Of a DNA stretch of 64,000 bases, positions 5,312 to 40,378 are shown piece by piece. Source of the DNA: a bacterium (lineage in GTDB: Bacteria; Patescibacteriota; Minisyncoccia; Phycocordibacterales; UBA2100); assembly GCA_030674455.1 (NCBI GenBank), contig JAUSGQ010000007.1, positions 83,947 through 147,946 of the forward strand. Reading direction: 5' to 3'. The notes beneath the pieces were generated by a model, which ran no database searches, was not told the DNA's origin, and saw only the letters and a program-made list of their open reading frames with translations. Both the position numbers and the translations under genes were made by a program. Within the stretch, counting starts at the first letter, position 1. Every line of letters begins with the position of its first letter.

Positions 5312-5905
5312 TTAAAGCCCGAAGATTTTCTTGAAAGAATTCTCGTGGGTAATGCGCTCTGCAACCGCAATTTCAATATTATTTGTAATGTTGAAATAAT
5401 CAGCGATGACCTCAAGTTCTTCTTCGCACGGATAGGGACATATAAATACTGACTTTTGATACCTTTCAAACCCAAGCCGCTTTAACGTGGCCGCGAATGC
5501 GTCGCGCGCTGATTTCATCTGATTTGGTATATCGAAGAACACGAGATGCCACCTGCTATCCCAGACAGCCAGTTTGGCCGGCCTGAGATCATATATCGCA
5601 TTACGTGCAACGACCTTGGCACCAGCCTTTGTAAGCTCAATCTCAGCCCGTTCATTCCCATATCTACGGATTCTTATATATTTCTTGTCAATAATATATT
5701 TTGAAATATATCTAAGCTGGCGCTCCGAAGCCTGCTGAAGTTTCTCGAAATCACGAAGTGCGCGGTAGGCACTCAATGAGTTTCGGGCAGGGTGTCGCGA
5801 AATTGCTATTGCTGCATTGCCAATGGTACTCAATACCTTATAGAGAAGTTGACTCTTGCGACTTGACGAGATTTTCATAGAAAGCCTGTCAAGAAAGTAT
5901 AACAT
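5312..5905 (-). CDS. PaaX-family-like transcriptional regulator (N-terminal wHTH plus PaaX_C-like domain)
   Basis: The C-terminal motif WDSRWHLVFFDIPNQMKSARDAFAATLKRLGFERYQKSVFICPYP matches the PaaX C-domain (Cas2/VapD-like fold) signature W.G.W.lv.fDiPe...R..lr..L..lGfg.lq.SVwv.P. The N-terminus is HTH-like. Confidence 0.55.
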   Translation of the reverse strand: MLYFLDRLSMKISSSRKSQLLYKVLSTIGNAAIAISRHPARNSLSAYRALRDFEKLQQASERQLRYISKYIIDKKYIRIRRYGNERAEIELTKAGAKVVARNAIYDLRPAKLAVWDSRWHLVFFDIPNQMKSARDAFAATLKRLGFERYQKSVFICPYPCEEELEVIADYFNITNNIEIAVAERITHENSFKKIFGL

Positions 5906-6525: not shown

Positions 6526-7599
6526 ATGAAAAACTATTACGATATTCTCGGTATATCTAAGACGGCGACGGATGATGAGATAAAATCTGCATTTCGAAAG
6601 CTTGCACATAAGTATCACCCCGACAAGAAAGGAGGCGACGAAAAGAAATTCAAAGAAGCGAGCGAGGCGTACGCAGTACTATCCGACAAGAAAAAGCGCG
6701 CTCAGTACGATACGTACGGAAGTGCGTTTGCGGGAGGCCAGGAAGGGCCGCGAGGCGGTTTCGGCGGCTTTGATTTCTCCAATTTCGCGCGCGGAAGCGC
6801 AAACTTTGACCAAGAATTCGACCTCGGCGATATTTTCGGCGAGTTCTTTGGCGCGGGCGCCCGAGGCGGGTCCGCGCGAAGAGGGCGTGATATTTCAGTT
6901 GATATTGAGCTTCCGTTCCGCGAAGCGATTTTTGGTACAGAGCGGCGGATGCTCATCGCTAAAATGGCGGTCTGCGGGGTCTGTGATGGCACAGGAGCCA
7001 AAAAAGGCACAAAGCGCACCACATGCTCATCTTGCAACGGCAAGGGCAGCATTCGCGAAGCGCGCAATACATTCTTCGGCAATTTCACCACAGAGCGCGT
7101 TTGCCCGCGCTGTTTGGGGAGGGGCGAAGTTCCCGAGCATGAGTGCGAAGTCTGCAAAGGCCAGGGAGTTGCAAAACGGGAAGAAGAAATACATGTCGTT
7201 ATTCCTGCTGGTATATCCGATGGAGAAATGATACGCATGCCCGGCCGCGGCGAAGCAGTGGCGGGAGGCACTGCTGGCGATTTGTACGTCAAACTTCATA
7301 TTAAAGAAGACAAAGCATTTGCCCGAGACGGACACAATCTTATGACCGTACTTCATTTGAAACTTACGGATGCTCTGCTTGGCGGTGAATTCAAAGTTGA
7401 AACACTCGACGGCCCGACAACCGTGCGCGTTCCTCAAGGCGTCGCGCATGGCGAACTTATACGCGTAAGAGAACGAGGAGTGCCATACGGCAGAGGTTCG
7501 CGGGGTGACCTGTTTGTTCGCGTTGATATACAATTGCCTAAGAAACTCTCGCGCGCGGCGAGCGAGCTTATTGCACAGCTTCGTAAAGAGGGACTGTAA
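6526..7599 (+). CDS. dnaJ: chaperone DnaJ
   Basis: It has a J domain (YYDILGISKTATDDEIKSAFRKLAHKYHPDK), a G/F-rich region, and four CxxCxGxG zinc-finger repeats. The start is set at the ATG 6 nt downstream of a TATAAT (6514-6519). Confidence 0.9.
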   Translation: MKNYYDILGISKTATDDEIKSAFRKLAHKYHPDKKGGDEKKFKEASEAYAVLSDKKKRAQYDTYGSAFAGGQEGPRGGFGGFDFSNFARGSANFDQEFDLGDIFGEFFGAGARGGSARRGRDISVDIELPFREAIFGTERRMLIAKMAVCGVCDGTGAKKGTKRTTCSSCNGKGSIREARNTFFGNFTTERVCPRCLGRGEVPEHECEVCKGQGVAKREEEIHVVIPAGISDGEMIRMPGRGEAVAGGTAGDLYVKLHIKEDKAFARDGHNLMTVLHLKLTDALLGGEFKVETLDGPTTVRVPQGVAHGELIRVRERGVPYGRGSRGDLFVRVDIQLPKKLSRAASELIAQLRKEGL

Positions 7600-7665
7600 G
7601 GGCAGGTTTAAGGTTTTAGGTGTCAGGTTATAGGAAATCTTTAAAACCAAACAAGAAATCTTTTC

Positions 7666-8157
7666 ATGGAAATATCCTCAATTAGCAATTTCTTTGCTTA
7701 CGTTCCGACGGACTGGATAATCATAGTCGCTCTCGCGGTCATTGCTTCATTTGATGCTATTCGTTCCGGCATGGGAAGGCAGGTCGCTCTCGCACTATCG
7801 CTGCCGGTCGCACTTTTATTTTCCACATCACTTCAAAGCGCTAAATTCCTCTCCGGCATTTTGCCGCAAATTGGAACTCCCATTTTAAAAGCGGCTTTTT
7901 TCGGGGTCCTTTTTGTGGTCGCATATTTTCTCATCCGCCGCATGACCGAATCGTATGGAAGCGGAAGCGGCGCAGTAATACAAGCTGTCGTAGCAGGCGT
8001 AGCAACGACTGCAATTATAGTCATCATCTGGTTGCAAGTGCCGGAGCTTCAAGCTATTTGGAACTTTGGCCCGCAGGTACAGGCTGTTTTTGCTGAAGCG
8101 TATCGTTTCTGGTGGCTGCTCGGCTCCTACGTTGCTCTCGCGTTTGTGAGGGGCTAA
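7666..8157 (+). CDS. hypothetical integral membrane protein (possibly CvpA-like, 4 TM)
   Basis: The sequence is hydrophobic with four helices. Length and topology are reminiscent of the CvpA family, but no diagnostic motif. Confidence 0.4.
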   Translation: MEISSISNFFAYVPTDWIIIVALAVIASFDAIRSGMGRQVALALSLPVALLFSTSLQSAKFLSGILPQIGTPILKAAFFGVLFVVAYFLIRRMTESYGSGSGAVIQAVVAGVATTAIIVIIWLQVPELQAIWNFGPQVQAVFAEAYRFWWLLGSYVALAFVRG

Positions 8158-8205: not shown

Positions 8206-9681
8206 CTAATTCTTGCCAATCAAAGTTTCCGCTCCTCCGCTTATCGTTGTAACGGAACCGGAAAAGAACGGTTTGATGCTATCCGTATCTGTCGTGCCAT
8301 CTTCGGTAAGAAACACTGAATTTCCGGAGACATCTGTGTTGCCTCCCGGCAATGTATAAATTCCATAGCCATAGTTTTGTCCAACGAGATATATGTATGT
8401 AGCATCGTCTATATCAAACTGAATTGTGCGATTCGAGCCGGTAATACCGATGTCGCCCTGAATATACGCGTCTACGGAATTTCCTTTCCGAATGAGAACT
8501 CCCTCGGGAAACGATGCAGTGTAATCCCTGCCATCCGCCTCCGTTTGATATGACTGTTCGTCAACGACTACTTTGACATTCGATATGTCAGAGTTGCTCG
8601 CAGTGCCGCTCTGCCGCCACGTCAGGGAATATAGCCTCAAATCTTCCGTAGAACCCGCGGTAATGCGAATACCGGAAAATCTAACGGCCGTGTCGTTGAC
8701 ATAGCGAGTCATCGCGTTGTTCGGGTCATATTGCGAAAGAACCGCCGAAGCAGTGCCGATTTGAAGCGAAGAGTTTATGCTTTGAGAAGCGCCGCGTATG
8801 GGCAATTGCCCCTCAACGGGAACCGACGCGTCAATCGTCCTCACTTGAAGAATGGCCACTTCTCCAGAATGTTCCGAAAGGTCCCACGCCATATTTCCGT
8901 CGACAGAGAGCGCCAGAGGTTCCCCGACGCGAACTTCGAGCGGTTTTTTGAATTTAAACACTGCCGTGTGGTCAGAACGGATATACGCGTAACTTAATTC
9001 GTTATCATCTCCATCGACAAGAGACAAGTAATCAAACACCTTGTCACTCGACGGTCCTGTTCTTTGAACAGTTATGCTGTTCACTGTTAAATCCGCGCCC
9101 CTGGCGCTAATCTCGAAACTGGTGAATGGTACGTAGTACGCCTGCTGAGGCGCGATTGTGGAAACCGGCTGTTCTGCGGAGGAGACCACAAGAGCGGCAG
9201 ATTCTGTACTTACAGACGAAGAAGACAAGGCCTGCGCAGAGATTGCCGAAGCAACTTGCGTCATCGGCAGGTTAGTCTGACTAACCGCAGGTGCAACACA
9301 AAGCGCATTCAGCTTCGCGCGAGTTCTAATGCCTACAATGCCGGTACCTTTAAACAAACCTGCCGGAGTCAAGATTTCTGAGGCGAATTTCTCCTGAAAT
9401 TTGATTACCGACGTTTTCGTACGCGGACCGAAGACATTTGATTCATTGCCGGGAGAACCCGCGCTAGTTTCTGCAATCCGAGTTTCCGGGCTGGAATTCA
9501 AAAATCTTTGCAATGCCAGAACATCAACGCCAGTAGAACCAACTTTCAAATTTCTCTCCCAAGCGAAAGGGCATGCCGAAGAAGTATCGGCAAAAGCTGT
9601 TGAGGCAAAAAGAAGGAGAAAGACCGGCAAAATGAGCAACCAACGACCGCGACCGACCCGAGCAAGGGCATTAACATACAT
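8206..9681 (-). CDS. secreted protein with peptidoglycan-binding (PG_binding_1) domain
   Basis: A signal/TM segment (WLLILPVFLLLFASTAFA) and a PG_binding_1-like segment (GSTGVDVLALQRFLN...FGPRTKTSVIKFQEKF) are present. The start is set at an internal ATG (MYVNALARV) because the annotated 5-prime 68 codons overlap the next gene region. Confidence 0.6.
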   Translation of the reverse strand: MYVNALARVGRGRWLLILPVFLLLFASTAFADTSSACPFAWERNLKVGSTGVDVLALQRFLNSSPETRIAETSAGSPGNESNVFGPRTKTSVIKFQEKFASEILTPAGLFKGTGIVGIRTRAKLNALCVAPAVSQTNLPMTQVASAISAQALSSSSVSTESAALVVSSAEQPVSTIAPQQAYYVPFTSFEISARGADLTVNSITVQRTGPSSDKVFDYLSLVDGDDNELSYAYIRSDHTAVFKFKKPLEVRVGEPLALSVDGNMAWDLSEHSGEVAILQVRTIDASVPVEGQLPIRGASQSINSSLQIGTASAVLSQYDPNNAMTRYVNDTAVRFSGIRITAGSTEDLRLYSLTWRQSGTASNSDISNVKVVVDEQSYQTEADGRDYTASFPEGVLIRKGNSVDAYIQGDIGITGSNRTIQFDIDDATYIYLVGQNYGYGIYTLPGGNTDVSGNSVFLTEDGTTDTDSIKPFFSGSVTTISGGAETLIGKN

Positions 9682-9780
9682 ACGATTAGTATAATATGCA
9701 TCAAGCATGGCAAGGGTATGTAACGTGATTTCTGTGCATATCCTGTGGTATATTGACTGTGCACAATAGTGCCGTAATTT

Positions 9781-11106
9781 ATGAGATTTAAGGAGGCCAA
9801 AGGAGCCATAAAGAGATCTAGGTCTATAGAGGATATTAGGCAGGCACGCGAAACAATCAAGGGTCTTGACGATGAACATTATCATCTTCCTTTTGAATTC
9901 CCGGTTGCGAGCGAGTTATTAGACGCCTATCTTGCGCGAAAATCATTGCCGTATAATAAACAGCCAAATGCAAGGATTTATCTTTCTGCGGACGGAAAGG
10001 TTAATTACGACGCGTACACGCTTGGAGAAGTACATGACCCAACTTACGTTTTCGGCATTGCCGATGAGAGCAGGCACGCAGAAGTCAATGGGTTACAGAC
10101 ACCTCAATTTAGCGACGTCGTGGCAAGTGCCCCGATTGAGCAACCATCAATTACAAACATAATTCATGTCAAGAATACCGGATTAGTGGTTTTTAAGGCA
10201 TTTCTTAAAAAGTCGCTTAGCACAATGGCAAGAAGCAAGATTCCCCGGGCCAATGCCTTGTATGACGAGAAAAGGGCCGTCAGCGAGAGTGCACAGCTTG
10301 CACTGTTGGGAGATATTTTTAAGAATAGCGCCGATGTTTATGTTCCGCGAGTACTCGGCCACAGTCGTTCCGTAATCGCGATGGAGTATATCCAGGGAGA
10401 GGACATCTCAGAATTGACTTTCAAAAGATTCCTAAATAAACACGATTTTCTTGCAATTGCTGATGTACTTGCAACGATACACATTGAATTTGCTAGAAAT
10501 GCCGAGAAAATCAAGGGTAAATTCAATATTCCTGAAAGTCACACCGCGAATAGCGTCGTAAGTTTCGAAAAGAGAACGAGTCAGTTTCATCACGAGCATC
10601 GGGATAACGGCTTGAAACAAGAGTTATTTGATAGATTTACATCGTTAATTGAACGCGGGCGTCAAGTCATTGCTGATAATCACGAGGCATACCATGATTA
10701 TCGGGATTTGATTTACGGTGACTTTAAGGATGAAAATCTGATTAAAATGCCAGATGGCAGAATAGCACTGATTGACCCGACTATTTGTGCTGGCAGAAAT
10801 AGTATGGACATAGCAAAATTTGCGCGAAGTATTCTTTTCAAGGACCCAACGACTTACACTAAACACTTCCATGATTTCTTGAGAAGGTATCAGGAGCAGA
10901 CCGATACTGTCGTTAATGAGAGAGAGGTCGCAAATATGCTGGGTATTGACATGCTCAACATCATGCGAAGCTATTTTCTGATACCCGAAAAGCAGGTACT
11001 GGTATTTCCACCTACGGTTCGTAATGTCCGACAACATGCAAAATATTACCTTGATTTTATTGACAATGTGTTTGCAAGCAATCTACAGCTCGAGCTTGCG
11101 CATTAA
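9781..11106 (+). CDS. protein-kinase-like fold phosphotransferase (APH/RIO/Kdo-kinase-like)
   Basis: A hinge-like VIAMEYIQGEDI, the catalytic loop LIYGDFKDENLI (HGDxxxxN-like, with D and N conserved) and the metal-binding RIALIDPT (DFG-equivalent) are present. The first ~180 aa have no recognisable family. The gene is AT-rich relative to its neighbours. Confidence 0.5.
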   Translation: MRFKEAKGAIKRSRSIEDIRQARETIKGLDDEHYHLPFEFPVASELLDAYLARKSLPYNKQPNARIYLSADGKVNYDAYTLGEVHDPTYVFGIADESRHAEVNGLQTPQFSDVVASAPIEQPSITNIIHVKNTGLVVFKAFLKKSLSTMARSKIPRANALYDEKRAVSESAQLALLGDIFKNSADVYVPRVLGHSRSVIAMEYIQGEDISELTFKRFLNKHDFLAIADVLATIHIEFARNAEKIKGKFNIPESHTANSVVSFEKRTSQFHHEHRDNGLKQELFDRFTSLIERGRQVIADNHEAYHDYRDLIYGDFKDENLIKMPDGRIALIDPTICAGRNSMDIAKFARSILFKDPTTYTKHFHDFLRRYQEQTDTVVNEREVANMLGIDMLNIMRSYFLIPEKQVLVFPPTVRNVRQHAKYYLDFIDNVFASNLQLELAH

Positions 11107-11114
11107 TCATACAT

Positions 11115-12545
11115 ATGAAATTGGGGACGTATAAGCTTTCCAATAAAGACTTCTTGCGAAGCTATGGCCCTGAGGATATAGAGAATCTCGATACGTCAAG
11201 CAGATACGATTGTGATGTGCTAGTTTGGAATAACAGATATGATTTTTGCTCGGAAATGCTAGTGAGTTTCCCACGTCTAAAATTATTCATAAATTGGGGA
11301 ACTGATGACGCTAACTTGCCTGATTTAGACATGTTGGCGAAGAGGGTTATGGTCAAGAAAGTTGATTTTTACGCACAACAAAGCCTGTGTGAATATGTTC
11401 TTATGTTGATGGTTGCGTTTGAGCACGCTCAAGAGAAAATCTTTCATGATGATGCAGACAATTTCACTATGCAGATTTATGGCAAAAAGATAGGAATTAT
11501 CGGCTTAGGCAAGATCGGTTTTAACGTGGCAAGCTTTCTTCACAAATCCTTCAATTGCATTATCTATTACAACACTACTAAAGATTACCGTATCCCAGAT
11601 TACCAATACGCGTCTAAGGATGACTTGATAAGAGTCTGCGATTACGTAATTATTGTGGCGAAGTCAAGAACGTGTTCTGTTGACCCAAAAGTCATGGAAC
11701 ACGCAAACCCAGATCTTGTTATTCTTAACATCTCGCGGGACAGCATATTGCCCTTCAAGATAATATGTCCATATCTGCAGAGTGGAAAAATTAGAGGGTT
11801 CATAGGCGATGTTACAAAACTAAACCCAGGCGATGGAGTTGCCAAGAATATCCTTATCTCTCCTCGAATTGGCTATCAAACAAAAGAGGCCGTAGAGTTA
11901 AAGCAAAACATCTTATTGTTCTATTTGAAACAATATATGTTTTGTGAGGCCAATAAGAAATCGTATGTTCATATTGCCCGGCATGGTAAGACAGAATGGA
12001 ACTCTTTAAGAATCTACCAAGGCACATATGATTCGCCGCTAACGCACAATGGCAAAGAGGATGCTGAGAAAATTGCTGAATCTCTTGCAGATAAAAAAAT
12101 CGTTCACGTCTTTACAAGTCCTCTCGGTAGGGCTAAAAGAACCGCGGAAATAATTGTCGATAAACTTAATGTACCAATATCAACAATCCCTTCTTTTATT
12201 GAGATGAATTTTGGCATCTTTCAACAAAAACCTCAAGAGCAAATCAAGGAATTGTTTGATGATTTCTTCACAAATCGAAATAATAATGCGCACTACAAGT
12301 TGTTTGTGCCATATCCATCTGGTGAAAGTTATTTTGACGTATATCAACGAATTCTATTTGACATTATGAGGATATTGGTTACGTATGATAATTTTGCAAT
12401 CGTCGGGCACGAAAGTGTTAACAGGATGATAAGGGGAATAATAACCGGCAAGAATCTAACAGAAATGGTTAACGCTAGACAAAAGAATAATGAACTCATT
12501 GCAATAGAATTATCGGAAAATATTGAAAGTGTGATTGTCGTTTGA
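11115..12545 (+). CDS. fusion protein: D-isomer 2-hydroxyacid dehydrogenase-like NAD-binding domain (catalytic Glu/His apparently substituted) plus histidine phosphatase (phosphoglycerate-mutase-like) domain
   Basis: The N-terminal half has a Rossmann GKKIGIIGLGKIGFNVA and an ILNISRDSIL...GKIRGFIGDV core, but the expected EP/PH catalytic residues read NP/PR. The C-terminal half has the RHG motif (HIARHGKTEWN), SPLGRAKRTAEII and a second His (VGHESVNRMIRG) typical of His_Phos_1. Confidence 0.6.
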   Translation: MKLGTYKLSNKDFLRSYGPEDIENLDTSSRYDCDVLVWNNRYDFCSEMLVSFPRLKLFINWGTDDANLPDLDMLAKRVMVKKVDFYAQQSLCEYVLMLMVAFEHAQEKIFHDDADNFTMQIYGKKIGIIGLGKIGFNVASFLHKSFNCIIYYNTTKDYRIPDYQYASKDDLIRVCDYVIIVAKSRTCSVDPKVMEHANPDLVILNISRDSILPFKIICPYLQSGKIRGFIGDVTKLNPGDGVAKNILISPRIGYQTKEAVELKQNILLFYLKQYMFCEANKKSYVHIARHGKTEWNSLRIYQGTYDSPLTHNGKEDAEKIAESLADKKIVHVFTSPLGRAKRTAEIIVDKLNVPISTIPSFIEMNFGIFQQKPQEQIKELFDDFFTNRNNNAHYKLFVPYPSGESYFDVYQRILFDIMRILVTYDNFAIVGHESVNRMIRGIITGKNLTEMVNARQKNNELIAIELSENIESVIVV

Positions 12546-12576
12546 ACATCTGTTGCTATACCAATGTGCGCGATAA

Positions 12577-13191
12577 ATGATTTCGTCCATGGCATCAATA
12601 ATAACTGAACGAGGAAGAGCAATTCACGGCTGGTTTTTACGCCACAAGGAGCGGATTGGGATTATCGCTATAGGACATACGGCAAAACAGATTGAGGAGT
12701 TTTTCTTAGACTGGCTTTTATACGGATTTGTCGTGTTCAAGAGCGCCGAAATTTGGGGTCCTTATTACGGCGCCTTGGTTGCTTTCGCTGTGATGTCGCC
12801 ATTCTCGGCTTTGCTTTGCTATCTCTACATTCGTTTTTACGACTGGGCAAAAAAAGATTGGCTCGGCTTGGAAACTATCGAGGAGTTTAGGCAATCCGAA
12901 GCAACAGCTGGCCCAATAATGCGATGGGTAATTAAGTTCACTAAACTTGGCGACTTTCCGATGTTCGTTGTGTTATCAATATATGGAGACCCGTTTGTAG
13001 TTACTTTGTATTTCCGGCGCGGAGCGCACTTGTACAACGGCCTTTCAAAACGGGACTGGTCTATTTTTTGGGCAAGCGTAGTGTTCTCCAACGCGTACTG
13101 GACGCTCCAGTGGGGAATTATTGTCGCGCTTTTGCATCCGCTTTGGCAGTATGTATTGCAACCGATTCTCCATTTTGTGGGATTTTTCTAA
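12577..13191 (+). CDS. hypothetical membrane protein (204 aa, ~4 TM)
   Basis: The ORF is hydrophobic. It is co-oriented with, and 31 nt after, the previous gene. No recognisable family. Confidence 0.4.
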   Translation: MISSMASIITERGRAIHGWFLRHKERIGIIAIGHTAKQIEEFFLDWLLYGFVVFKSAEIWGPYYGALVAFAVMSPFSALLCYLYIRFYDWAKKDWLGLETIEEFRQSEATAGPIMRWVIKFTKLGDFPMFVVLSIYGDPFVVTLYFRRGAHLYNGLSKRDWSIFWASVVFSNAYWTLQWGIIVALLHPLWQYVLQPILHFVGFF

Positions 13192-13245
13192 TTCGCGTAA
13201 GTAAGGTTGACAACGTGGTGGAAAACGTCGTATCTCAACTGACGA

Positions 13246-13291
13246 GAAGATTGACTTAAAATATCCGGTCGGATATTTTAAGTCAATCTTC
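13246..13291. promoter_or_regulatory. perfect 22-2-22 palindrome (operator-like) containing an embedded promoter TTGACT-17-TATTTT
   Basis: GAAGATTGACTTAAAATATCCG-GT-CGGATATTTTAAGTCAATCTTC is seen directly. TTGACT lies at 13251-13256, the spacer is 17 nt, and TATTTT lies at 13274-13279, ~45 nt upstream of the MazF-like start. Confidence 0.55.
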
Positions 13292-13325
13292 TAAATTCCA
13301 CTTGAGTTCCCATGCTGGTGCTACA

Positions 13326-13727
13326 ATGGCGCGAATGGGGAAGGAGTTTGACAACTGGAACGAGCGGAAGAAAAAGCTACATAACAGTGAGCGACAGTTA
13401 TTATTTCACGAGCGCGAAATCTGGTGGTGTTCGCTCGGCATCAATATCGGGTTTGAACAAGACGGGACGAATGAACTCTTCGAGCGGCCGGTGTTAATCG
13501 TGAAGAAATTCAATCGGGATGTACTGTGGGCGTTGCCACTCACGCGCTCCGATAAGAAAAACCGATATTATATTCCTATCAGTGTTGGCGGCGCGAATTC
13601 TGCTGTCATACTCTCTCAATTGCGGCTCATCAGTAGCAAGCGTCTCCAAAGGCATATGCACAAGTTGCCACAGGGGCAGTTCAAAGAGATATTGCGTCTC
13701 GTGCAACAGTTTTTCCCGAGCAGGTAA
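13326..13727 (+). CDS. MazF/PemK-family toxin-like endoribonuclease (solitary, no adjacent antitoxin ORF)
   Basis: It aligns motif for motif with MazF/EndoA: [30 protein letters not shown] versus [33 protein letters not shown] versus [26 protein letters not shown] versus ERDSVILLEQIRTIDKQRL. The annotated ORF begins with TTG at 13302. The first ATG is at 13326. Confidence 0.65.
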   Translation: [133 protein letters not shown]

Positions 13728-13732
13728 AATCG

Positions 13733-13761
13733 AAACCCGCCTTGCGGCGGGCTTCTCGGTT
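13733..13761 (+). terminator. putative Rho-independent terminator after the MazF-like gene
   Basis: A GC stem CCCGCC-TTGC-GGCGGG is followed by CTTCTCGGTT, 6 nt after the stop codon. Confidence 0.5.
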
Positions 13762-13815
13762 GGCCTAGTGGCCATTTGTGCTTGCATAATAACAAACCGA
13801 GGAATCCAGTCAAGG

Positions 13816-13845
13816 TTGACAACTGGGTAGAAAACGTCGTATTAT
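13816..13845 (+). promoter_or_regulatory. sigma70-like promoter TTGACA-18-TATTAT upstream of the secreted-protein gene cluster
   Basis: Seen directly. It lies within the second copy of the ~31-bp direct repeat AAGGTTGACAAC..GAAAACGTCGTAT. Confidence 0.5.
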
Positions 13846-13941
13846 ACGGCTACTTCAGCTTCAAATAGTCGTTGGAGGATGCTCTTTTTGTTAGTGAGTG
13901 TTCTTTGACAGGTATCTCAATCGCAATTTTCAGGAGAACTC

Positions 13942-14928
13942 ATGATTTCCCTCAAAGGATTTACCCGTGGCTTCATCGCCACGGTTCTGCTCGCGCTGGC
14001 CGGAGTGAGCGTTGCACAAGCCGGAATCTTTCGGGCACTTTTCAGCGGCTCCCAGGATTCCTTTACCCTGTCGGCCGTACTGCCTGCGTACTGCGGTGGC
14101 AAACGTGTGTATGTCGTCGGTATCACCCGGTCAGGGGAAGCCGCTACGTACGTTGCGTTCACTTCGGTGAACGCACCGGTCGTGTTCGATTTGAACGCGG
14201 CCATTCAGGGACTTGCGGAAATCCCTGAATACACGGCAGCTCGCGCGAGCGACGGGAGTATACCCATCCTCGCGTCTTTCAACGTCACCCCCTACCCCGG
14301 AGGGGAAATCTGGGTCGGCTGCGGAACGTCCACGGTAGACGTTCTCGCAAACTCGAGGTACGGCCGGATTTTGGTTGTGAGCATCTCCTGGTGGCCATCG
14401 CAAAGGTCACCAAACGTTGGGGACACTAGCCAGGGCCCGCAACAAATTCCCAACGATGCGGTGTATGTTGGCGACTGGGGTTGGCAAAGGGCAGTCATAA
14501 ACGGCCTCGTGCCATTCCTAGCCTCAGGAGTGGAACTGACCGGTTATACCACCCGTGCAATTCGATTCGCCTTCTACATTTCCGCCAGCAACACCTCGTG
14601 TATGAAAATGATATATGAGGATGACGGAAGCGCGGTTGGTTTCCCCAATACCAGTGGTGGGGAATGCTTCACCAACAGAATTTCCTGGGCAACAGGTACT
14701 GACGATGGTTATATTGCCTTTTCTCCGGATTTCCAGGGTGGTGTGTGCGCTCATTACACCTGGAACGAGAGCCGATTGACACTCGTCGGACAGAGAATTG
14801 TATGTCCACCTGACTTTCTCCAGATGCACTCTCCAGATACCCTGCCGGCCAGCAGGGTATGTTTTTTATTCACACAAATTGTTGCGCACAATTTGCGTTG
14901 CAAAAGAGATGATATACTTTTTATGTAA
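13942..14928 (+). CDS. hypothetical secreted protein (signal peptide, Cys-containing), GC-rich
   Basis: The N-terminal signal peptide is MISLKGFTRGFIATVLLALAGVSVAQA. An SD AGGAG lies 8 nt upstream. There is a marked GC increase versus the preceding island. No family recognised. Confidence 0.5.
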   Translation: MISLKGFTRGFIATVLLALAGVSVAQAGIFRALFSGSQDSFTLSAVLPAYCGGKRVYVVGITRSGEAATYVAFTSVNAPVVFDLNAAIQGLAEIPEYTAARASDGSIPILASFNVTPYPGGEIWVGCGTSTVDVLANSRYGRILVVSISWWPSQRSPNVGDTSQGPQQIPNDAVYVGDWGWQRAVINGLVPFLASGVELTGYTTRAIRFAFYISASNTSCMKMIYEDDGSAVGFPNTSGGECFTNRISWATGTDDGYIAFSPDFQGGVCAHYTWNESRLTLVGQRIVCPPDFLQMHSPDTLPASRVCFLFTQIVAHNLRCKRDDILFM

Positions 14929-15392
14929 TGAAACTTTCCAAATCTCTGGCCATAGTGTCCGTGGTTGTTCTTGTAAGTCCGGTCGGATTTGTCCATGCCA
15001 AGGTTTACTGCCCGGGTGAGACGGCAATTCTAAATTACAGCATCTCTAATGTAGTAACAGGCGGAAGCTGTGATAGCCAAATTACCCCTCCATTCCTTTC
15101 TCCTTATCCATCACTTCCTAGTGGAGGAATAACAGTCAGTCAGGGAACTGCGCAGGGTTCGGTTTCGTACACTGTTTCGGAAGGCGGAACGTTTTCATTC
15201 AGTTGCACGAACCCGGGCGCAAGCCCAACAACTGGCAGTACTGTACTTGAAGTCAATGCAAACCAAGAGAGATGTTGCGGTAATTGGGACCTATCGAGTA
15301 AATCATCGTGGAATGGAACCACTTGCGTGGACCCTTTTTCTGTCGTGCCGCAAGCTCCGGCTTGGATTGGCGGTTCTTGCAGGAGAATTTGA
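14928..15392 (+). CDS. hypothetical secreted Cys-rich protein
   Basis: It has the signal peptide MKLSKSLAIVSVVVLVSPVGFVHA and multiple Cys residues. The start overlaps the previous stop (ATGA-type coupling). Confidence 0.5.
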   Translation: MKLSKSLAIVSVVVLVSPVGFVHAKVYCPGETAILNYSISNVVTGGSCDSQITPPFLSPYPSLPSGGITVSQGTAQGSVSYTVSEGGTFSFSCTNPGASPTTGSTVLEVNANQERCCGNWDLSSKSSWNGTTCVDPFSVVPQAPAWIGGSCRRI

Positions 15393-18432: not shown

Positions 18433-19219
18433 GGATAATGGGGTCAGCCACCATTTATGATATCATGCGCGCATGCCAAGGATGCAATAATGGATAATGG
18501 GGTCAGCCACCATTTATGATATAATAACCGCATGCCAAGAATAGAACGAACTGACATTGGTGATTATGTGTATCACGTAATCAATAGAGCAAACGCTCGA
18601 GTACAGATATTTGACAGCGACAAAGATTACGAGCTTTTTGAGAATATCCTTGAGGAAGCGGTGGAGAAATTCGACATGAGACTCTTGGCTTATTGCATCA
18701 TGCCAAATCACTGGCACTTAGTTCTGTATCCAAGAAATGACGGAGACCTTTCTCTCTTTATGGGCTGGCTTACTAACACGCACACAAGAAGATGGCATAC
18801 CGGAAAGGGAACCATAGGACAAGGCCATCTTTATCAGGGCAGATACAAGTCATTCTTATGCCAAGATGATAGTCATTTTCTTTCCCTCGTGCGCTACGTG
18901 GAACGTAACGCGAAAAGAGCAAATCTAGTTAAAAAAGCGGAAAACTGGAAATGGTCTAGCGCATGGCGAAAAGAATATGGAACAACTAAACAAAAGAAGA
19001 TTCTCTCACCATGGCCGGTTCCTGCACCGAGAAACTATCTGCAATGGCTAAATCAAGCACAAACAGAAGATGAAGAAGAGGCAATAAGGAGGTCTGTTAC
19101 AAAGGGTAACCCATATGGTGGGAGTGGCTGGACAGATAACGTAGTAAAAAGATTCGGCCTTGAGCAAACACTAAGGAAAGTAGGCAGGCCGAACACAAAC
19201 AATGGTGGCTGACCCCATT
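18433..19219 (+). mobile_element. IS200/IS605-family (tnpA-only) element or REPtron-like unit with a tandem-duplicated left end
   Basis: The 31-bp GGATAATGGGGTCAGCCACCATTTATGATAT occurs twice in tandem (18433-18463 and 18493-18523) before the transposase gene. Its inverse complement (AATGGTGGCTGACCCCATT) lies at 19201-19219, overlapping the gene stop. Confidence 0.5.
18532..19212 (+). CDS. IS200-like / REP-associated Y1 (HUH) tyrosine transposase
   Basis: It has the HUH motif CIMPNHWHLVLYP and a conserved Tyr region (RYVERNAKRANLV). It is 226 aa long and flanked by inverted copies of a hairpin-forming repeat. Confidence 0.75.
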   Translation: MPRIERTDIGDYVYHVINRANARVQIFDSDKDYELFENILEEAVEKFDMRLLAYCIMPNHWHLVLYPRNDGDLSLFMGWLTNTHTRRWHTGKGTIGQGHLYQGRYKSFLCQDDSHFLSLVRYVERNAKRANLVKKAENWKWSSAWRKEYGTTKQKKILSPWPVPAPRNYLQWLNQAQTEDEEEAIRRSVTKGNPYGGSGWTDNVVKRFGLEQTLRKVGRPNTNNGG

Positions 19220-20019: not shown

Positions 20020-20955
20020 ATGCAACGGCTTCTAACCGGTGTTCAGCCATCCGGCACAACCCACCTTGGCAACTATTTTGGCGCGCTCCGGCCTTTCGTT
20101 TCCATGTATAAGGAATACGAGAGCATGCTGATGCTCGCCGATTACCACGCACTCACCACGCTCAAAGACCACGCCGAACTGCGCGAAAATGTAATGAATG
20201 CCGTCAGAGATTACATTGCTATCGGAGTGGACCCGAAACAAGCAACAATTTTCCAGCAATCCTCCGTTCCCGCTCACACGGAACTAGCATGGATTCTTGA
20301 GTGCCAAGTTACAGTTCCATTTCTGATGCAAGCGCACGCTTATAAAGACAAAGTTGCCAAAGGACTCGAGGCGAACGCCGGCCTGTTTTGCTATCCGATG
20401 CTCATGGCAGCCGATATTCTTATGTACGATACTGATGTGGTTCCGGTTGGTATTGACCAGAAACAGCACGTGGAATACGCGCGAGAGGCTGCCGCGAAAT
20501 TTAATACCGCGTACGGCGAGACTTTTAAGGAGCCGAAGGAAATGGTTTTGCGCGACTCGGCGACAGTTCCCGGCACTGACGGCAAGAAAATGAGCAAGAG
20601 TTATGGAAACACAATACCGCTTTTTGGCACAAAAGATGAAATTCACAAAGCGGTGATGGCGATCGTTACAGACTCAAAAGGTGAGAGCCCGGAGAATGTG
20701 TACGCGATACACCGCCTTGTAAAAGACGAGTCAGAAATCGCAACTCTATATAAATCTAATAAAGGAAAATACAAAGTTGTTAAAGACGCGCTTGCGGACG
20801 ATATTGATGCAATGGTCGCGCCAATGCGTGAAAAGCGCGAGTCTATAAGCGATGCCGATGTCATAAAAATACTCAAAGACGGTGCAGAAAGGGCGCGCGA
20901 GCAGGCCGAAGCGAAAATGGAAATTGTCCGGCAGAAAGTCGGAGTAACAATATGA
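20020..20955 (+). CDS. trpS: tryptophan--tRNA ligase
   Basis: It is a class I enzyme with an N-terminal TGVQPSGTTHLGNY (HIGH-like) and KMSKS (KMSKSYGNTIPLF). The ~311 aa size is typical of TrpRS. Confidence 0.9.
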   Translation: MQRLLTGVQPSGTTHLGNYFGALRPFVSMYKEYESMLMLADYHALTTLKDHAELRENVMNAVRDYIAIGVDPKQATIFQQSSVPAHTELAWILECQVTVPFLMQAHAYKDKVAKGLEANAGLFCYPMLMAADILMYDTDVVPVGIDQKQHVEYAREAAAKFNTAYGETFKEPKEMVLRDSATVPGTDGKKMSKSYGNTIPLFGTKDEIHKAVMAIVTDSKGESPENVYAIHRLVKDESEIATLYKSNKGKYKVVKDALADDIDAMVAPMREKRESISDADVIKILKDGAERAREQAEAKMEIVRQKVGVTI

Positions 20956-24969: not shown

Positions 24970-27900
24970 ATGTATGCCACTATTCGATTATTACCATGCC
25001 TAAAAGCGAGCCTCCTTTTCATGCTTAGAAAATTCACCTTCGGAGGCATTGGCTTAGCTCTTCTCATAACTCCTTTATTTGCTAGTGCTGATACGACAAG
25101 CGATGCGACTGAATTATCGCGCTGGGAGGCGGTAGTAACTTGTCTAAAAATCAAAGTTGACAACCATGATTACGTTAATGCACTTTCTTGTTTAGGAGCT
25201 GGAACAGCCGCGAACACATTATTTTCTCCGTCTGTGAGTTCTCTCAAAGCTGGCGCGCTTGCCGCCGTAGCAACGACATTCACACAGTCGTCCGGCTCAA
25301 ACAGCGCCGAGCCGGCAACAGATGCGGAAAAGGAGGCGGAGATGCTTACCGATCTCCTTAGCTCCAAAATTGCGCCGGAACCGGTAACGAGGTCAAAAGT
25401 CGGCGCGTTCGCTTCAGAATCTGAGAAAGTAAAACAGCAGGTACAAGTCGCGAAGCATCGCGGACAGCTTATGAAACAGTTGGCTGAAGATAACCCCGAG
25501 GCCTTTCTTCGCAATGTTATGCCGGAGTCTCAGCGCTCCAAATTCTCAACCGAGGTTAAGAACGAAATTGAGCAAAAAGTGGCACTAACGGGGAAAGTGG
25601 AGGTCGTACACCTTGATGATTTCACAAACCATGAAAACTCAAAGTTTAATTATTTTCTTCAATCGGGAGGTTCCAGAATCTCGCTTAAGGTCGCAGGGAA
25701 CACGCCAGCAATGTTATCCGGCTCTTCAGTGCGCGCGAATGGATATAAACTCGGTCAAACTCTTGTTGTGGCTGCAAATTCAAATTCAGATGGGGATTCA
25801 GGCGGAGGAGGAGGTTTGACGGTACTTTCGCGGCCAGCTCTTGAATCTGCCAGAACGCAAAGAACTCTGGTAATTCTTGTAACTAGTCCTGGGCAGGCAA
25901 GTACGCCGACAAAAGAAGAAATGAGAAACCTTATATTCTCCGGAAATATTAATAGATATTACGAGGAGCAATCATACGGAAACGTACGATTTGAAGGAGA
26001 CGTGACTGATTGGATATCAGTGCCTGCTTCTTCATATCCTGTGTATGGGCCTATCGAACTCGACCAGTCGGATATAAGTAGCTATATTTCACGAAATCAC
26101 ATAGACTTGTCGCTCTATGATCGAGTCATGACCGTTGTAAACGGCTGGGCCGGTGGTTATGCATGGGCCGGCAAGGTGGACAGGTTAATCAACGGTGTAA
26201 CCTATCGCCTTTCCATAGGTTCGACGGGCTGGTCGGTTTCAGGATGGGCAGTAGAGAACATGTCCGGCTTTGAAAATGTATTCTCGCACGAAATGGGGCA
26301 CGAGCTTGGAGTCATGCATGCTAATTCACGGGAATGTAGCGGTCCATCTCTGGATAGAGATTGTCGTCACAATGAATATGGCAATGCCTTCGACATTATG
26401 GGATATGGAAATAATGCGGAGCATTTCAATGCATATTACAAAGATTCTCTAGGATGGCTTGATAATTCCTCGAAGGTTTCCATTACTCAAAGCGGAAGAT
26501 ATTCACTCTCGCCAATCGAGGCGCGGACAGGCGTGCGAGCTGGCATTATCACCAACCCTGCTACTCCTTCCGCGCTACCCTTGTATCTCGAATTTAGGCA
26601 ACCGATGGGATATGACAGTATATTGCCGCCCAACTCGGCAGGCCTGCAGTTAAATCAAGTTGTTACAAGAGGTCCATATGATTGGCTTCCATTTCCATGG
26701 CTCATTAACGCGAATTACGCGACCGATCCTCCATGTAATCCAGGTTTCCCATGTTTTTCACAGCCGTCGCTTATGCAGGGTAGCAATTTCTCATGGGCTG
26801 GTCGTGGCATCAGCATAGGTTCACTCGTTACAACACCAACATTGGCAACTTTTGATGTCGGGCTTACACAGCCATTGTGCGAACGAAACGGTTTATATGA
26901 TAGTAATAACAATCCATACTGGCAACAGCGTGTGGCTGCCGGCTCAAGCGCAACACTGCAAATTAATTTGACGAACGGCAACACTATCGCATGCGGTCCG
27001 AGTACAGTAGAATTTTCGACCTCTGTGACGAATTCGAGCGGATGGTCTATCTCGCAATATCCGAACGAGAGTAACGAAAGAGTTGTTATTGCGCCCGGCG
27101 AGACTGAGCGTGTGTATGTATCCCTTTCTCTGCCAGAAGATGCAGCACCGGGCAATAGAACTGTACGTATCACGGTGTCTGATTTGACCAACGGTCGTTC
27201 ATACAATATTGAGAGGACAATTACGGTCACGGCGAGACCAACGATAACCGAAATCTTTCCTTCAAGCGGAAGAGCGGCGACTGCCGTGACATTAAAAGGT
27301 ACGGGGTTCAATGAGTACCCAGGAAACACTATAAATATCAATGGAGGAAATCTCTCTGCCACTATTAGAAATGTTATTGCTAGAGCCGGAACTCTAACCT
27401 TCACCTTTCCTACAACCTTTGAGAGTTACGGCGGAGGAAGCGAGCCGCGACCTTCACAAGTTCCACCGCCATTGGGTCAGTACTCAATTGCTGTTTCTCG
27501 AAATGATGACGGCGGAACCGCAAGCGCAACGTTCACAGTAACGTCGGGTAATTCAGCTTTTCCCACCATCACATCAATTAATCCTTCGAGTACAACAGGA
27601 AGACCAACAAACTTTACGATTATTGGGACAAACTTCCAGTCTGGGTCAATGATTTACTACACCTATGCTGGCACTGGCAGTATTCCTTCTGGCACTTTTA
27701 CGCCGACGTTCAACCCCTCTAGACCTGATAGATTGACGTTCACTACGGCATCATTGCCTAAAGGAATCTACACTTTTTATGTTAAGAATCCTGACGGTCA
27801 AATTTCAGACACCGAGAATGTGACGGTTTTCTGTTACGACTTCAGAAGTATTCCATTGCAGGAGGGAAGTCAGGGAGCTGATGTTATTGCTCTCAAGCAG

Positions 27901-38447: not shown

Positions 38448-39719
38448 ATGATGTTTGAGCGGGCAATTCTTCATATCGACGGCGATTCTTTTTTTGCTTC
38501 CTGCGAAGTCGCGAAAAATCCGAGTTTAAAAGGGAAGCCGGTCATAACCGGGCGCGAGCGCGGCATTGTTTCCGCCATGACGTATGAGGCAAAAGCGAAA
38601 GGCATAAAACGAGGAATGATCCTCTCCGAAGTGCGCCGAATATGTCCAGACGCCATAATTCTGCCTTCCGATTACGAAACGTACAGCATCTTCTCCAAGC
38701 GCATGTATGCCATCGTACGGCGATATACGGACATTGTAGAGGAATACAGCATAGATGAGTGCTTCGCAGGGATTGAAGGGCCAAATGGCAGGGAAGTAGC
38801 AACCTCGATAAAACAGACCCTGGAGAGGGAACTCGGAATGACTTTTTCCATTGGTCTTTCCGCTACAAAAGTGCTGGCTAAAATCGGTTCCAAATGGAAG
38901 AAGCCCGACGGCCTTACCGTGATTGCGCTTAAAGACGCGCCTCTGTACCTCGACAAAACGCCCGTGGAAAAGATATGGGGTATCGGACCCGCCACTTCGC
39001 TTTTATTAAATTCCCGCGGGGTACGGACAGCTCTTGAATTTTCCCTGAAGAATGACGCGTGGGTCAGGGGCTTGCTCGCAAAACCGTATGTGGAAATTTG
39101 GAAAGAACTGAACGGGGAAGTCGTGAATGAGCTGGATGTGGATGGCAGGCAAACCTACAAATCCATAGCAAAGACAAAGACATTTACTCCGCCATCCCAC
39201 GATCCCGCGTTCGTATACTCTCAGCTCTCCAAAAATGTCGAGAACGCCTGCATCAAACTCCGCCGATGGCATCTTGAGGCGCGCGAGGCCCACATATTCT
39301 TGAAGACGCAAAGTTTCGCATATCACGACGCTAAAATCTCTCTGCCGCACCCCACCTCCGCGCCGCAGGAAATTCTTTCTGCCATATCAAAAAGTTTCCC
39401 CCGGATTTTCCAAAGGGGAGTACGGTATCGGGCAACCGGCATTTCACTCATGAATTTAATCGACAGCCAATTGCCAAAGCAATTGAATCTGTTCAACGAA
39501 TATTCAAGCGGGGATGACATTAAAGCGGTCTACGAGAGCATGGACGCGCTTAGTAGCCGATACGGCAAGCATGCAGTTTTCTTATGTTCTAGCTTCAGCG
39601 CGATGAACCATAAGAACCCACAAGACGGCTACGGCGCTACCTCGGAGCGCACAACTAATATTTTTAAAGGGGAATCAGGCCGTAAACGCCTTGGCATACC
39701 GATGCTCGGGGAAGTATGA
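38448..39719 (+). CDS. dinB: Y-family DNA polymerase (DinB/UmuC-like)
   Basis: ILHIDGDSFFASCE, SIDECF and the little-finger domain are present. It is downstream of lexA (SOS cassette). Confidence 0.8.
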   Translation: MMFERAILHIDGDSFFASCEVAKNPSLKGKPVITGRERGIVSAMTYEAKAKGIKRGMILSEVRRICPDAIILPSDYETYSIFSKRMYAIVRRYTDIVEEYSIDECFAGIEGPNGREVATSIKQTLERELGMTFSIGLSATKVLAKIGSKWKKPDGLTVIALKDAPLYLDKTPVEKIWGIGPATSLLLNSRGVRTALEFSLKNDAWVRGLLAKPYVEIWKELNGEVVNELDVDGRQTYKSIAKTKTFTPPSHDPAFVYSQLSKNVENACIKLRRWHLEAREAHIFLKTQSFAYHDAKISLPHPTSAPQEILSAISKSFPRIFQRGVRYRATGISLMNLIDSQLPKQLNLFNEYSSGDDIKAVYESMDALSSRYGKHAVFLCSSFSAMNHKNPQDGYGATSERTTNIFKGESGRKRLGIPMLGEV

Positions 39720-39743
39720 GAAAGTTAGTGGTAAAAGCGCACA

Positions 39744-40364
39744 TCACAAAAGAGGGTTGGAATACGCTTTTCTCGCCTTAAGCAGAGTAAATAATGTATC
39801 CATAGTTACAATTCTTGTTGTTTTGGGCAAAGGTTTGAGTTTAGTGATAGCATAACGATCAATGTCATCCTGCCTTAAACTTTCATTTGCCGTGACGAGA
39901 AATAATTCAATGGGAAAATTGCGATATTTGCCCATTTTGATATTTATGTTCGACTTCAGATACCTCATTGTATCGGTATAGAAAACGTCAATACCAAAAT
40001 TCCCATCAGGCGAATAAACATAAAAATCAACGCGATTCTTTGAAGATTCAAAGAACTTTTCCGTGTGGACAAAAACTTCCCCGAACCTATCGCGCAACAC
40101 TTTCTCTAATGCAAGTTCAGTCTTGCGCCCTCTGTCCTTTACGCGGCTCGCAATCTCGCTTCTAAAGGAACCTTTGCCAAAATGAACATCAGAATATCCC
40201 AGCTGTTTGCGTAATCGTGCGAGACCGCCAAATCTTTTTTGAATATTCCGAGAAGAGGGAAGATATTCAAGTTGATCAATTTCCAAAGCGCGCGGAAGTC
40301 GTCCGTGTTCATTTTTGAAGCGTTCGAATCCCTCTTTGATCTTATCAACAGTCCAGATTTTCAT
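39744..40364 (-). CDS. hypothetical protein with N-terminal homing-endonuclease-associated (HNH-repeat-like) module, possible nuclease
   Basis: WTVDKIKEGFERFKNEHGRLPRALEIDQLEYLPSSRNIQKRFGGLARLRKQLG fits the W..e.I......f....GR.P...e......PS...i...FGsw..A repeat seen in homing endonucleases. The C-terminal half has no clear motif. It lies 15 nt downstream of the recombinase gene. Confidence 0.4.
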   Translation of the reverse strand: MKIWTVDKIKEGFERFKNEHGRLPRALEIDQLEYLPSSRNIQKRFGGLARLRKQLGYSDVHFGKGSFRSEIASRVKDRGRKTELALEKVLRDRFGEVFVHTEKFFESSKNRVDFYVYSPDGNFGIDVFYTDTMRYLKSNINIKMGKYRNFPIELFLVTANESLRQDDIDRYAITKLKPLPKTTRIVTMDTLFTLLKARKAYSNPLL

Positions 40365-40378
40365 AAAAATGTTATTTA

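Follow-up and report, generated by a model that had tools for sequence, protein, structure and literature searches.

In the 64-kb window analyzed here (the whole stretch taken from contig JAUSGQ010000007.1), one open reading frame (ORF) encodes a protein that is predicted to consist of a complete 2-hydroxyacid dehydrogenase (2-HADH) fold rigidly joined to a catalytically complete histidine phosphatase. Our data show that this fusion architecture is rare, restricted to Peregrinibacteria-type members of the candidate phyla radiation (CPR), and uncharacterized. They also show that decay of the dehydrogenase catalytic triad is a trait of the whole family, while the cofactor-pocket residues are conserved. 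We tentatively read the protein as a small-molecule phosphatase that is active and carries a non-canonical domain of the NADP(H) type as an accessory, in a kinase/phosphatase module that serves aromatic amino acid synthesis, and assign this reading a probability of roughly 45%.

Architecture, distribution, and active sites

The fusion ORF (11115..12545, + strand; 476 aa plus a stop codon) is a 100% match to the NCBI protein MDO8552179.1, encoded on a 154-kb contig of a metagenome-assembled genome (MAG). NCBI labels that entry only "histidine phosphatase family protein [bacterium]," an automatic name that hides the fusion architecture and should be treated with caution in annotation. Pfam identified 2-Hacid_dh_C (PF02826) at residues 106-238 (E = 1.7e-16; 60.5 bits versus a cutoff of 25.1) and His_Phos_1 (PF00300) at residues 286-469 (E = 1.6e-39; 136 bits versus 21.7), the latter match spanning profile positions 2-184 of 194. 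The first half contains the motifs GKKIGIIGLGKIGF (residues 123-136), ILNISRD (203-209), KLNPG (235-239), and ISPRIGY (248-254), and the phosphatase half contains RHGKTEWN (289-296), SPLGRAKR (335-342), and GHESVN (431-436).

An AlphaFold2 model computed from an input alignment of 26 family sequences (predicted local distance difference test score [pLDDT], 91.2; predicted template modeling score, 0.89) displays the complete two-domain 2-HADH fold followed by the phosphatase. In this model, the long C-terminal helix of the 2-HADH part (residues 257-278) runs straight into the first phosphatase strand without a flexible linker. The only weak stretches are residues 108-120 and ~230-260, the second of which holds the former Glu and His positions of the dehydrogenase active site. 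Foldseek matched the N-terminal half to more than 50 structures of the 2-HADH family (E = 1e-17 to 1e-15), and the alignment with Protein Data Bank (PDB) entry 6p2i spans residues 19-275, with the first segment of the substrate-binding subdomain matching the N-terminal domain of 6p2i from residue 19 on. Pfam, Foldseek, and AlphaFold2 thus agree on the 2-HADH NAD-binding fold that a first-pass annotation, made from the sequence alone, had recognized in this half.

A word-indexed search of 5.8 billion proteins yielded ~34 proteins with both domains, all of metagenomic or MAG origin, and an exhaustive HMMER search of 1.84 billion representatives clustered at 50% identity yielded ~18 full-length clusters. 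The named members belong to Candidatus Peregrinibacteria/Peribacteraceae, and our literature search found no paper on a fusion of histidine phosphatase and 2-hydroxyacid dehydrogenase, in line with the first-pass remark that the architecture was not familiar from characterized proteins. The same Pfam pair, in the same order, was also found in P0179, a metagenomic protein of 531 aa in which a canonical 2-HADH precedes a domain of the phosphoglycerate mutase (dPGM) type. Its triad is intact ("NTGRG," "FEHEP," and "TPHIAS"), its dPGM motifs read "ERDYG" and "AHGNSLRAL," and its relationship to the family is only distant (E = 5e-38 versus ~1e-200 within the family). Since it is so distant, we regard P0179 as a separate fusion event, so that the domain pair arose at least twice; both activities may be real in P0179, which would make it a bifunctional enzyme of phosphoglycerate metabolism.

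Catalytic positions in the dehydrogenase-like half were assigned by residue-by-residue HMMER alignment to 2dbq (P. horikoshii glyoxylate reductase) and 5aov (P. furiosus). R208 aligned to the substrate Arg ("niargk"; R241 of 2dbq), N237 to the catalytic Glu (last E of "feeeP"; E270 of 2dbq), and R251 to the catalytic His ("tpHig"; H288 of 2dbq), i.e., Glu is replaced by Asn and His by Arg. The conserved Arg in ILNISRD and the substitutions at NP and PRI had all been called correctly in the first pass. We then counted conservation across the 26 full-length family members. Position 208 is Arg in 13 of them (D, N, S, G, E, K, or F in the others), position 237 is Glu in 2, and position 251 is His in 13, Lys in 12, and Arg in 1, namely the query. 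Seven further members display the same scatter at the triad positions, including one with Asn at position 251 (P0075). Because the Arg-Glu-His machinery has been lost family-wide, the N-terminal half is not a canonical 2-hydroxyacid dehydrogenase, and its scores against the NCBIfam models of the 2-HADH type are far below every equivalog cutoff (57 versus 389 at best).

By contrast, the cofactor-type residues G127, G132, G135, Y152, N205, and D232 are invariant, and G130 and D176 are kept in 25 of the 26 members. W38, N40, N60, G62, and N67 of the N-terminal subdomain are likewise invariant, as is K263, and Y254, which occupies the canonical substrate-binding Ser position, is near-invariant. 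Mean pairwise identity is 0.37 in the N-terminal subdomain (residues 1-100), 0.41 in the Rossmann domain (118-230), and 0.47 in the phosphatase (284-476); the former active-site loop (231-256) is the least conserved region (0.29) and was modeled with the lowest confidence (pLDDT 64-76). Given these values, the Rossmann domain is under selection and its dinucleotide pocket is kept, while the canonical acid-base residues drift. This pocket is probably of the NADP(H) type, because strand beta-B lacks the terminal Asp (position 153 being occupied by N, Y, S, F, T, C, or H), position 155 is Arg in 14 of the 26 members, and the structures nearest to this half in Foldseek are NADP(H) complexes (6p2i, 3baz, 2dbq, and 6bii).

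The best solved relative of the N-terminal half is Bsp5 (6p2i; sequence E = 4.9e-11; fold E = 1.6e-17; template modeling score, 0.74). By its PDB title, 6p2i is an acyclic imino-acid reductase with NADPH and D-Arg bound; Bsp5 is also listed among the imino-acid reductases (PMC11876095). In the alignment, Asn takes the Glu position of Bsp5 and Gly its His position ("DNP" and "TPG," against "LNP" and "SPR" in the fusion); both proteins have the Arg, and neither has the NAD-specifying Asp. The likeness has its limits, since identity is only ~20%, the residues that replace the lost pair differ, and the Arg is not conserved in the fusion family, whose invariant WNN and INWGTDD motifs, Y254, and K263 are its own. 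In addition, Bsp5 is a stand-alone protein of a natural-product pathway and has no phosphatase domain. The glyoxylate/hydroxypyruvate reductases, hydroxyphenylpyruvate reductases, and phosphoglycerate dehydrogenases represented by 2dbq, 5aov, 3baz, and 1ygy share with the fusion the two-domain fold, the GxGxxG loop, the N205 and D232 positions, and the NADP-type pocket, but where the fusion has Asn and Arg they have the catalytic Glu and His.

In the phosphatase half, R289, H290, G291, N296, R339, E363, and H432 are invariant, so the catalytic set that the first-pass annotation had described as complete is present in all 26 members. R289, H290, R339, and H432 are the counterparts of R8, H9, R58, and H149 of HFP/iPSP1 (PMC12051542), and E363 aligned to the proton-donor Glu of PhoE, PspA, and CobC. 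The closest solved chains are PhoE (1h2e; E = 5e-17), PspA (4ij5; 7e-13), CobC (6nru; 5e-12), and FBPase-2 (3e-11). PhoE, CobC, and PspA resemble the fusion in their full catalytic set and ~190-aa domain, but the fusion carries this domain behind a 283-aa 2-HADH fold. In NCBIfam, the nearest named families are CobC, PspA, and GpmB/dPGM, and the fusion is below the cutoff in every case. The best-scoring one, CobC alpha-ribazole phosphatase (TIGR03162), was matched over its full length with 110.1 bits versus a cutoff of 162.9. PspA-type phosphoserine phosphatase (NF045917) reached 76.2 bits versus 350, and dPGM phosphoglycerate mutase (TIGR01258) reached 39.5 bits versus 81.7 in a match limited to the first ~65 residues. 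Following the proton donor, the fusion has the loop EMNFG and CobC has EMFFG (E-x-x-F-G in both), but PspA has EIDHG, with His85 of PspA aligned to the family-invariant F366. Chiba and colleagues reportedly found in 2013 that His85 is important for the phosphoserine phosphatase activity of PspA.

Kinase partner, natural variants, and aromatic amino acid genes

A related kinase gene adjoins the fusion gene in 12 of 15 non-redundant loci. Within the kinase family, G313, D314, K316, N319, and D332 are invariant, and the Pfam aminoglycoside phosphotransferase (APH) profile matched 9 of 10 members (best E = 4e-7), although the window kinase itself is below the cutoff (15.2 versus 23.2). Its first ~120 aa have a low-confidence predicted structure. 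The fold nearest to its AlphaFold2 core in Foldseek is that of 5-methylthioribose kinase (MtnK; 2pu8, E = 8e-8), followed by PsiK, APHs, choline/ethanolamine kinases, and FN3K; none of the top 50 fold matches was a protein kinase. The single kinase sequence had no match in the PDB, and the kinase-family profile matched only the catalytic loops of AKT and PKA there (E ~1e-3). We read the partner gene as encoding a putatively active small-molecule kinase of the MtnK/APH fold. Neither this conserved partner nor the link to aromatic genes described below appears in the first-pass annotation.

Several observations concern the genes at or near the kinase position. The ATP-grasp partners in loci L008 (3819-5045, +) and L093 (9418-10638, +) are nearest to the L-amino acid ligase BL00235 (3vot, E = 2e-13). 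Directly upstream of the fusion in L006, at the usual place of the kinase, lies a gene for a 350-aa histidine phosphatase (6870-7922, +), the ~150-aa C-terminal extension of which has no match to the N-terminal subdomain of the fusion family. In the window, a divergent ORF upstream (8206-9885, -) with a weak PG_binding_1 match overlaps the start of the kinase gene by ~100 bp; the public call of this gene is shorter (491 aa), so the start of the 559-aa ORF is probably placed too far upstream. The GC content of the fusion gene (37.8%) and of the kinase gene (42.7%) is well below the window mean (48.5%) and the values for the housekeeping neighbors rpoA (53.6%) and dnaK (51.7%), which could reflect amino acid composition or foreign origin.

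Natural variants indicate which parts of the protein can be lost. P0027-P0030 (311-317 aa) and P0085 lack the whole Rossmann domain and retain the N-terminal subdomain, part of the return segment, and the entire phosphatase, with 44-45% identity to the query over the shared parts. Since the deletion boundaries differ, at least two independent deletions must have taken place, and since P0028 was found on six contigs from four sources, it is no assembly artifact. The shortened genes still adjoin an APH-family kinase (L096-L098). Because these variants delete the Rossmann domain yet keep both the phosphatase and the kinase partner, the domain behaves as an accessory part that is dispensable in some lineages. 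The first-pass suggestion of a regulatory NAD(H)-sensing domain is partly supported, as far as an accessory role is concerned, but the cofactor would probably be of the NADP(H) type. Close stand-alone relatives of each half also exist (phosphatases of ~200 aa and N-terminal halves of ~275 aa), and two of the latter, P0086 and P0100, retain the Arg and the His.

[quoted passage not shown] The 2-HADH-like protein (P0035; 288 aa), product of the third gene, is stand-alone and has Lys at the His position. The HAD phosphatase, the gene for which overlaps the preceding one by 11 bp, is of the beta-phosphoglucomutase/hexitol-phosphatase (HxpB) type and not SerB-like. In this locus, an unrelated phosphatase fold stands in place of the histidine phosphatase, and the trio of kinase, 2-HADH-like protein, and phosphatase persists. 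Because the 2-HADH-like protein is a separate gene product beside a HAD phosphatase here, it is more than a regulatory appendage of the histidine phosphatase, a point on which the first-pass idea of a domain controlling that enzyme needs revision. Taken together, the deletions and the split suggest that phosphatase activity is what the system needs. More broadly, the series of variants, from a partial triad through His replaced by Lys or Arg to Rossmann deletion and a split with the phosphatase swapped, shows a domain being demoted or repurposed.

Histidine phosphatases that supply a "missing phosphatase" step on aryl-ribityl phosphates are already known, such as the ARAPDP phosphatase of Aquifex (PMC12051542). 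This precedent, the CobC-like EMNFG loop, and the sugar/polyol type of the L099 HAD phosphatase hint at a sugar-, polyol-, or hydroxyacid-phosphate as the candidate substrate, in preference to phosphoserine.

In 8 of the 15 loci, the flanks that were fetched contain genes for aromatic amino acid synthesis (aro/trp), in varied arrangements. In L001, a type I-alpha DAHP synthase is followed by the kinase, the fusion, and tryptophanyl-tRNA synthetase (TrpRS). In L002, genes for an EPSP synthase-shikimate kinase protein, dehydroquinate synthase, DAHP synthase, and a PfkB protein precede the kinase-fusion pair, and HAD, chorismate mutase, TyrA, a HisC-type aminotransferase, and a class Ib aminoacyl-tRNA synthetase follow it. 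The order in L090 is trpD, trpCF, trpB, trpA, kinase, fusion, an 83-aa gene, and tyrosyl-tRNA synthetase (TyrRS), with DAHP synthase-dehydroquinate synthase and EPSP synthase-dehydroquinase-shikimate dehydrogenase fusions in the vicinity. L006 is a near-complete aro/trp supraoperon in which the fusion lies between aroC and trpA, with a true ACT-type SerA at the edge. L008 has DAHP synthase, the fusion, and the ATP-grasp gene; L099 is described above; in L106, kinase, fusion, and TyrRS adjoin one another and DAHP synthase lies 3.6 kb further; and in L005, trpA/trpB and dehydroquinate synthase are found within 6 kb of the fusion. Five loci have an aminoacyl-tRNA synthetase gene directly downstream (TrpRS in two, TyrRS in two, and valyl-tRNA synthetase in one). 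Since DAHP synthases of both type I-alpha and type I-beta adjoin the module (L001, L008, and L099), what the module is associated with is the function rather than any one gene lineage. The sugar-phosphate metabolism of CPR bacteria is minimal and oddly wired, and a conserved gene pair inside the trp/aro operons of the few aromatic-making members suggests an accessory or precursor-supply step beyond the textbook pathways.

Two of these loci hold further unusual genes. L005 encodes a 495-aa fusion of Trp_repressor and PALP (TrpB-type) domains beside trpA (450-1937, -), and the L090 fusions (10537-14739, +) comprise a DAHP synthase-dehydroquinate synthase of 604 aa and an EPSP synthase-dehydroquinase I-shikimate dehydrogenase of at least 895 aa, reminiscent of AROM-type fusions in eukaryotes. 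T-boxes and riboswitches, as possible clues to the ligand, were sought with Rfam in the window and in 11 homolog loci, with zero hits.

Possible functions of the module

In the reading that we favor, H290 would attack a small metabolite's phosphate group, which would be held by R289, R339, and H432, and E363 would protonate the leaving group, as in the family mechanism. The kinase and the phosphatase would most likely make and remove a phosphate on one and the same metabolite, probably a sugar- or hydroxyacid-phosphate, which would supply or protect aromatic amino acid synthesis, tryptophan above all. The dehydrogenase-like half would most likely play an accessory part, binding a ligand or cofactor so as to tune or feed the phosphatase. 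A parallel is 6-phosphofructo-2-kinase/fructose-2,6-bisphosphatase, which also unites a kinase with a branch-1 histidine phosphatase and includes the FBPase-2 matched above. That enzyme acts on one metabolite, whereas a single shared metabolite is only presumed for the fusion module; moreover, its kinase is of the P-loop type, while here the kinase is a separate gene of the APH/MtnK fold and a third, dehydrogenase-like component is present.

Several findings weigh against this reading. The kinase is not universal, as L008 and L093, the two most divergent lineages, pair with an ATP-grasp ligase in its place and the partner of the L006 fusion is a second histidine phosphatase. Conservation of the Rossmann domain is on a par with that of the other parts (0.41 versus 0.37 and 0.47), and the cleft holds Y254 and K263, near-invariant and invariant residues of the family's own; a site that is still catalytic would therefore fit as well as a binding site. 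Indeed, Bsp5, the closest solved relative, is an active NADPH-dependent reductase that lacks both Glu and His, so the loss of these residues in a 2-HADH is no proof of inactivity, a point that also calls for care in annotation. As for the pathway link, tblastn with 35 aro/trp and neighbor proteins found no aro/trp gene in the window, and none was found in the fetched flanks of the close relatives L095 and L100-L103, so the link is not universal. In addition, Peribacteria are reported to lack phosphofructokinase, fructose bisphosphatase, and most amino acid biosynthesis (PMC4736985).

The same evidence makes a bifunctional enzyme possible, if somewhat doubtful. The 2-HADH-like half would be a neo-functionalized NADPH-dependent reductase or oxidase working through the basic residue at position 251, Y254, and K263, on a route in which a compound is phosphorylated, reduced or oxidized, and dephosphorylated before it passes to DAHP synthase or tryptophan synthase. 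Bsp5 speaks for such chemistry, being a reductase without Glu and His and the best match by both sequence and fold, and so do the invariant cofactor-pocket residues, the Rossmann identity of 0.41, the basic residue (H, K, or R) at position 251 in all 26 members, and the conservation of Y254 and K263. The stand-alone N-terminal halves P0086 and P0100 with their Arg and His, and the retention of the 2-HADH-like protein as its own gene in the L099 operon, point the same way. NCBIfam offers a precedent, similar in logic to the proposed route, in its model of the bifunctional mannitol-1-phosphate dehydrogenase/phosphatase MtlD (NF046057), which acts on consecutive steps and to whose phosphatase part the L099 HAD protein is weakly matched, although MtlD combines long-chain mannitol dehydrogenase and HAD folds and its dehydrogenase is catalytically intact. 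Against redox catalysis, half of the family has lost the carboxylate-anchoring Arg, position 251 is Asn in P0075, the active-site loop (231-250) combines hypervariability with low model confidence, and the whole Rossmann domain was deleted in at least two lineages that kept the kinase pairing, so redox chemistry is not essential to the module. We consider it unlikely that the full three-step route, with the kinase, an NADPH-dependent 2-HADH-fold catalyst, and the phosphatase feeding DAHP synthase or tryptophan synthase, is at work and that the fusion is a new bifunctional enzyme. The precursor on such a route would be, for example, erythrose-4-phosphate-related or 3-phosphoglycerate/serine-related, in CPR bacteria without the standard sugar-phosphate enzymes.

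TrpA releases glyceraldehyde-3-phosphate and TrpB consumes serine, and phosphoserine phosphatases are known in both HAD and histidine phosphatase versions, a parallel to L099. The C-terminal half might then be a phosphoserine phosphatase of the PspA type, joined to a pseudo-SerA domain and providing serine for tryptophan synthase, which we find quite improbable. PspA is the second-best NCBIfam match (76 bits) and 4ij5 is among the closest structures (E = 7e-13), the N-terminal half matches phosphoglycerate dehydrogenases, the module adjoins trpB/trpA in L090 and L006, the aro cluster of L006 has a genuine ACT-type SerA at its edge, and the serC-aroA operon of E. coli is a precedent for linking serine and aromatic genes. 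The score is nonetheless far under the PspA cutoff (76 versus 350), His85 of PspA ("EIDHG") gives way to the invariant F366 ("EMNFG"), as in CobC ("EMFFG"), and the L099 HAD protein is of the IA sugar-phosphatase/beta-phosphoglucomutase/HxpB type. Moreover, the serine pathway has no role for a kinase, and the pseudo-SerA lacks the catalytic pair. A regulatory protein kinase/phosphatase pair acting on TrpRS, TyrRS, or an aro enzyme, with the dehydrogenase-like domain as sensor and a logic comparable to the phosphorylation of TrpS by HipT, appears very improbable. It would account for the aminoacyl-tRNA synthetase gene directly downstream in five loci and for the kinase loop D-(F/L)-K-x-x-N, which carries the Lys typical of Ser/Thr kinases and by profile matches only AKT/PKA loops; histidine phosphatase-fold protein phosphatases do exist (SixA, PGAM5, and STS). 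What argues against it is the kinase fold, nearest to MtnK, PsiK, APH, choline kinase, and FN3K with no protein kinase in the top 50, together with the APH match in 9 of 10 kinase members without any HipA signal, a phosphatase half nearest to small-molecule enzymes, and the sugar-phosphatase-type HAD protein that takes its place in L099. We also considered, but for want of evidence did not adopt, a replacement for prephenate dehydratase/dehydrogenase, a sedoheptulose-bisphosphatase/sedoheptulose-7-phosphate kinase pair for erythrose-4-phosphate, a 4-phosphoerythronate repair phosphatase, vitamin B6 salvage, and salvage of dephosphorylated tryptophan intermediates.

Feature coordinates and the surrounding window

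Table. Positions of the module features and of the downstream synthetase gene in the window
Feature	Residues	Nucleotides	Strand	Remark
Partner kinase gene (441 aa)		9781..11106	+	stop codon 8 bp ahead of fusion ATG
Kinase catalytic loop YGDFKDEN...IDP	312-333	10714-10779	+	
2-HADH substrate-binding subdomain, first segment	1-100	11115..11414	+	kept even in Rossmann-deleted P0027-P0030
WNN motif	38-40	11226-11234	+	family-specific
INWGTDD motif	59-65	11289-11309	+	family-specific
Rossmann dinucleotide-binding domain	101-245	11415..11849	+	PF02826, PDB alignments
GxGxxG loop GIIGLGKIG	127-135	11493-11519	+	
Substrate Arg	R208	11736-11738	+	
Asp	D232	11808-11810	+	
Former catalytic Glu position	N237	11823-11825	+	
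Return segment of 2-HADH catalytic domain	246-283	11850..11963	+	
Former catalytic His position	R251	11865-11867	+	aligned to 2dbq H288
Tyr	Y254	11874-11876	+	
Lys	K263	11901-11903	+	
Branch-1 histidine phosphatase domain	284-476	11964..12542	+	PF00300; pLDDT 95-98
Phosphatase Arg-His	R289-H290	11979-11984	+	
Phosphatase Arg	R339	12129-12131	+	
Proton donor	E363	12201-12203	+	
Phosphatase His-Glu	H432-E433	12408-12413	+	
TrpRS-type class Ib aminoacyl-tRNA synthetase		20020..20955	+	Pfam tRNA-synt_1b, 200 bits

The window is that of a typical CPR chromosome, with rpoA, grpE-dnaK-dnaJ, genes for TrpRS and aspartyl-tRNA synthetase (AspRS), scpAB, and genes for giant and Cys-rich secreted proteins. 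Its TrpRS is 54% identical to the one directly after the fusion in L001, and the gene order is the same in L095; the ancestral order in the clade of the window is kinase-fusion-TrpRS-AspRS-scpAB. In the window, TrpRS is separated from the fusion by an insertion that carries genes for a membrane protein, MazF, Cys-rich proteins, a histidine kinase, and an IS200-like transposase. The membrane protein (204 aa; 12577-13191) was rejected as a part of the module, its sole homolog in the related loci lying elsewhere, in L095. The PemK/MazF-type toxin ORF (13302-13727, +; Pfam E = 9e-12) lies just 3' of the module, and the IS200-like Y1 transposase (18532-19212, +; E = 1e-17) falls within the insertion as defined relative to L001 and L095.

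Other ORFs of the window are listed here as observations. Cys-rich proteins of 328 and 154 aa that have no match in Pfam and an ORF of 1913 aa are found at 13942-15392 and 24970-30711 (+), and they are reminiscent of large extracellular proteins, rich in Cys, that have been described for Peribacteria (PMC4736985). A 197-aa protein with a PaaX central/Cas2-like domain (5312-5905, -; E = 5e-20) has no CRISPR context nearby, and a 734-aa GT20 (trehalose-6-phosphate synthase family) protein (45102-47306, -) carries an N-terminal extension of ~286 aa. Finally, genes for a DinB/IMS-family polymerase (38448-39719, +) and for a tyrosine recombinase/integrase (40379-41335, -) lie in a region (38448-41335) where a mobile element may have its edge.

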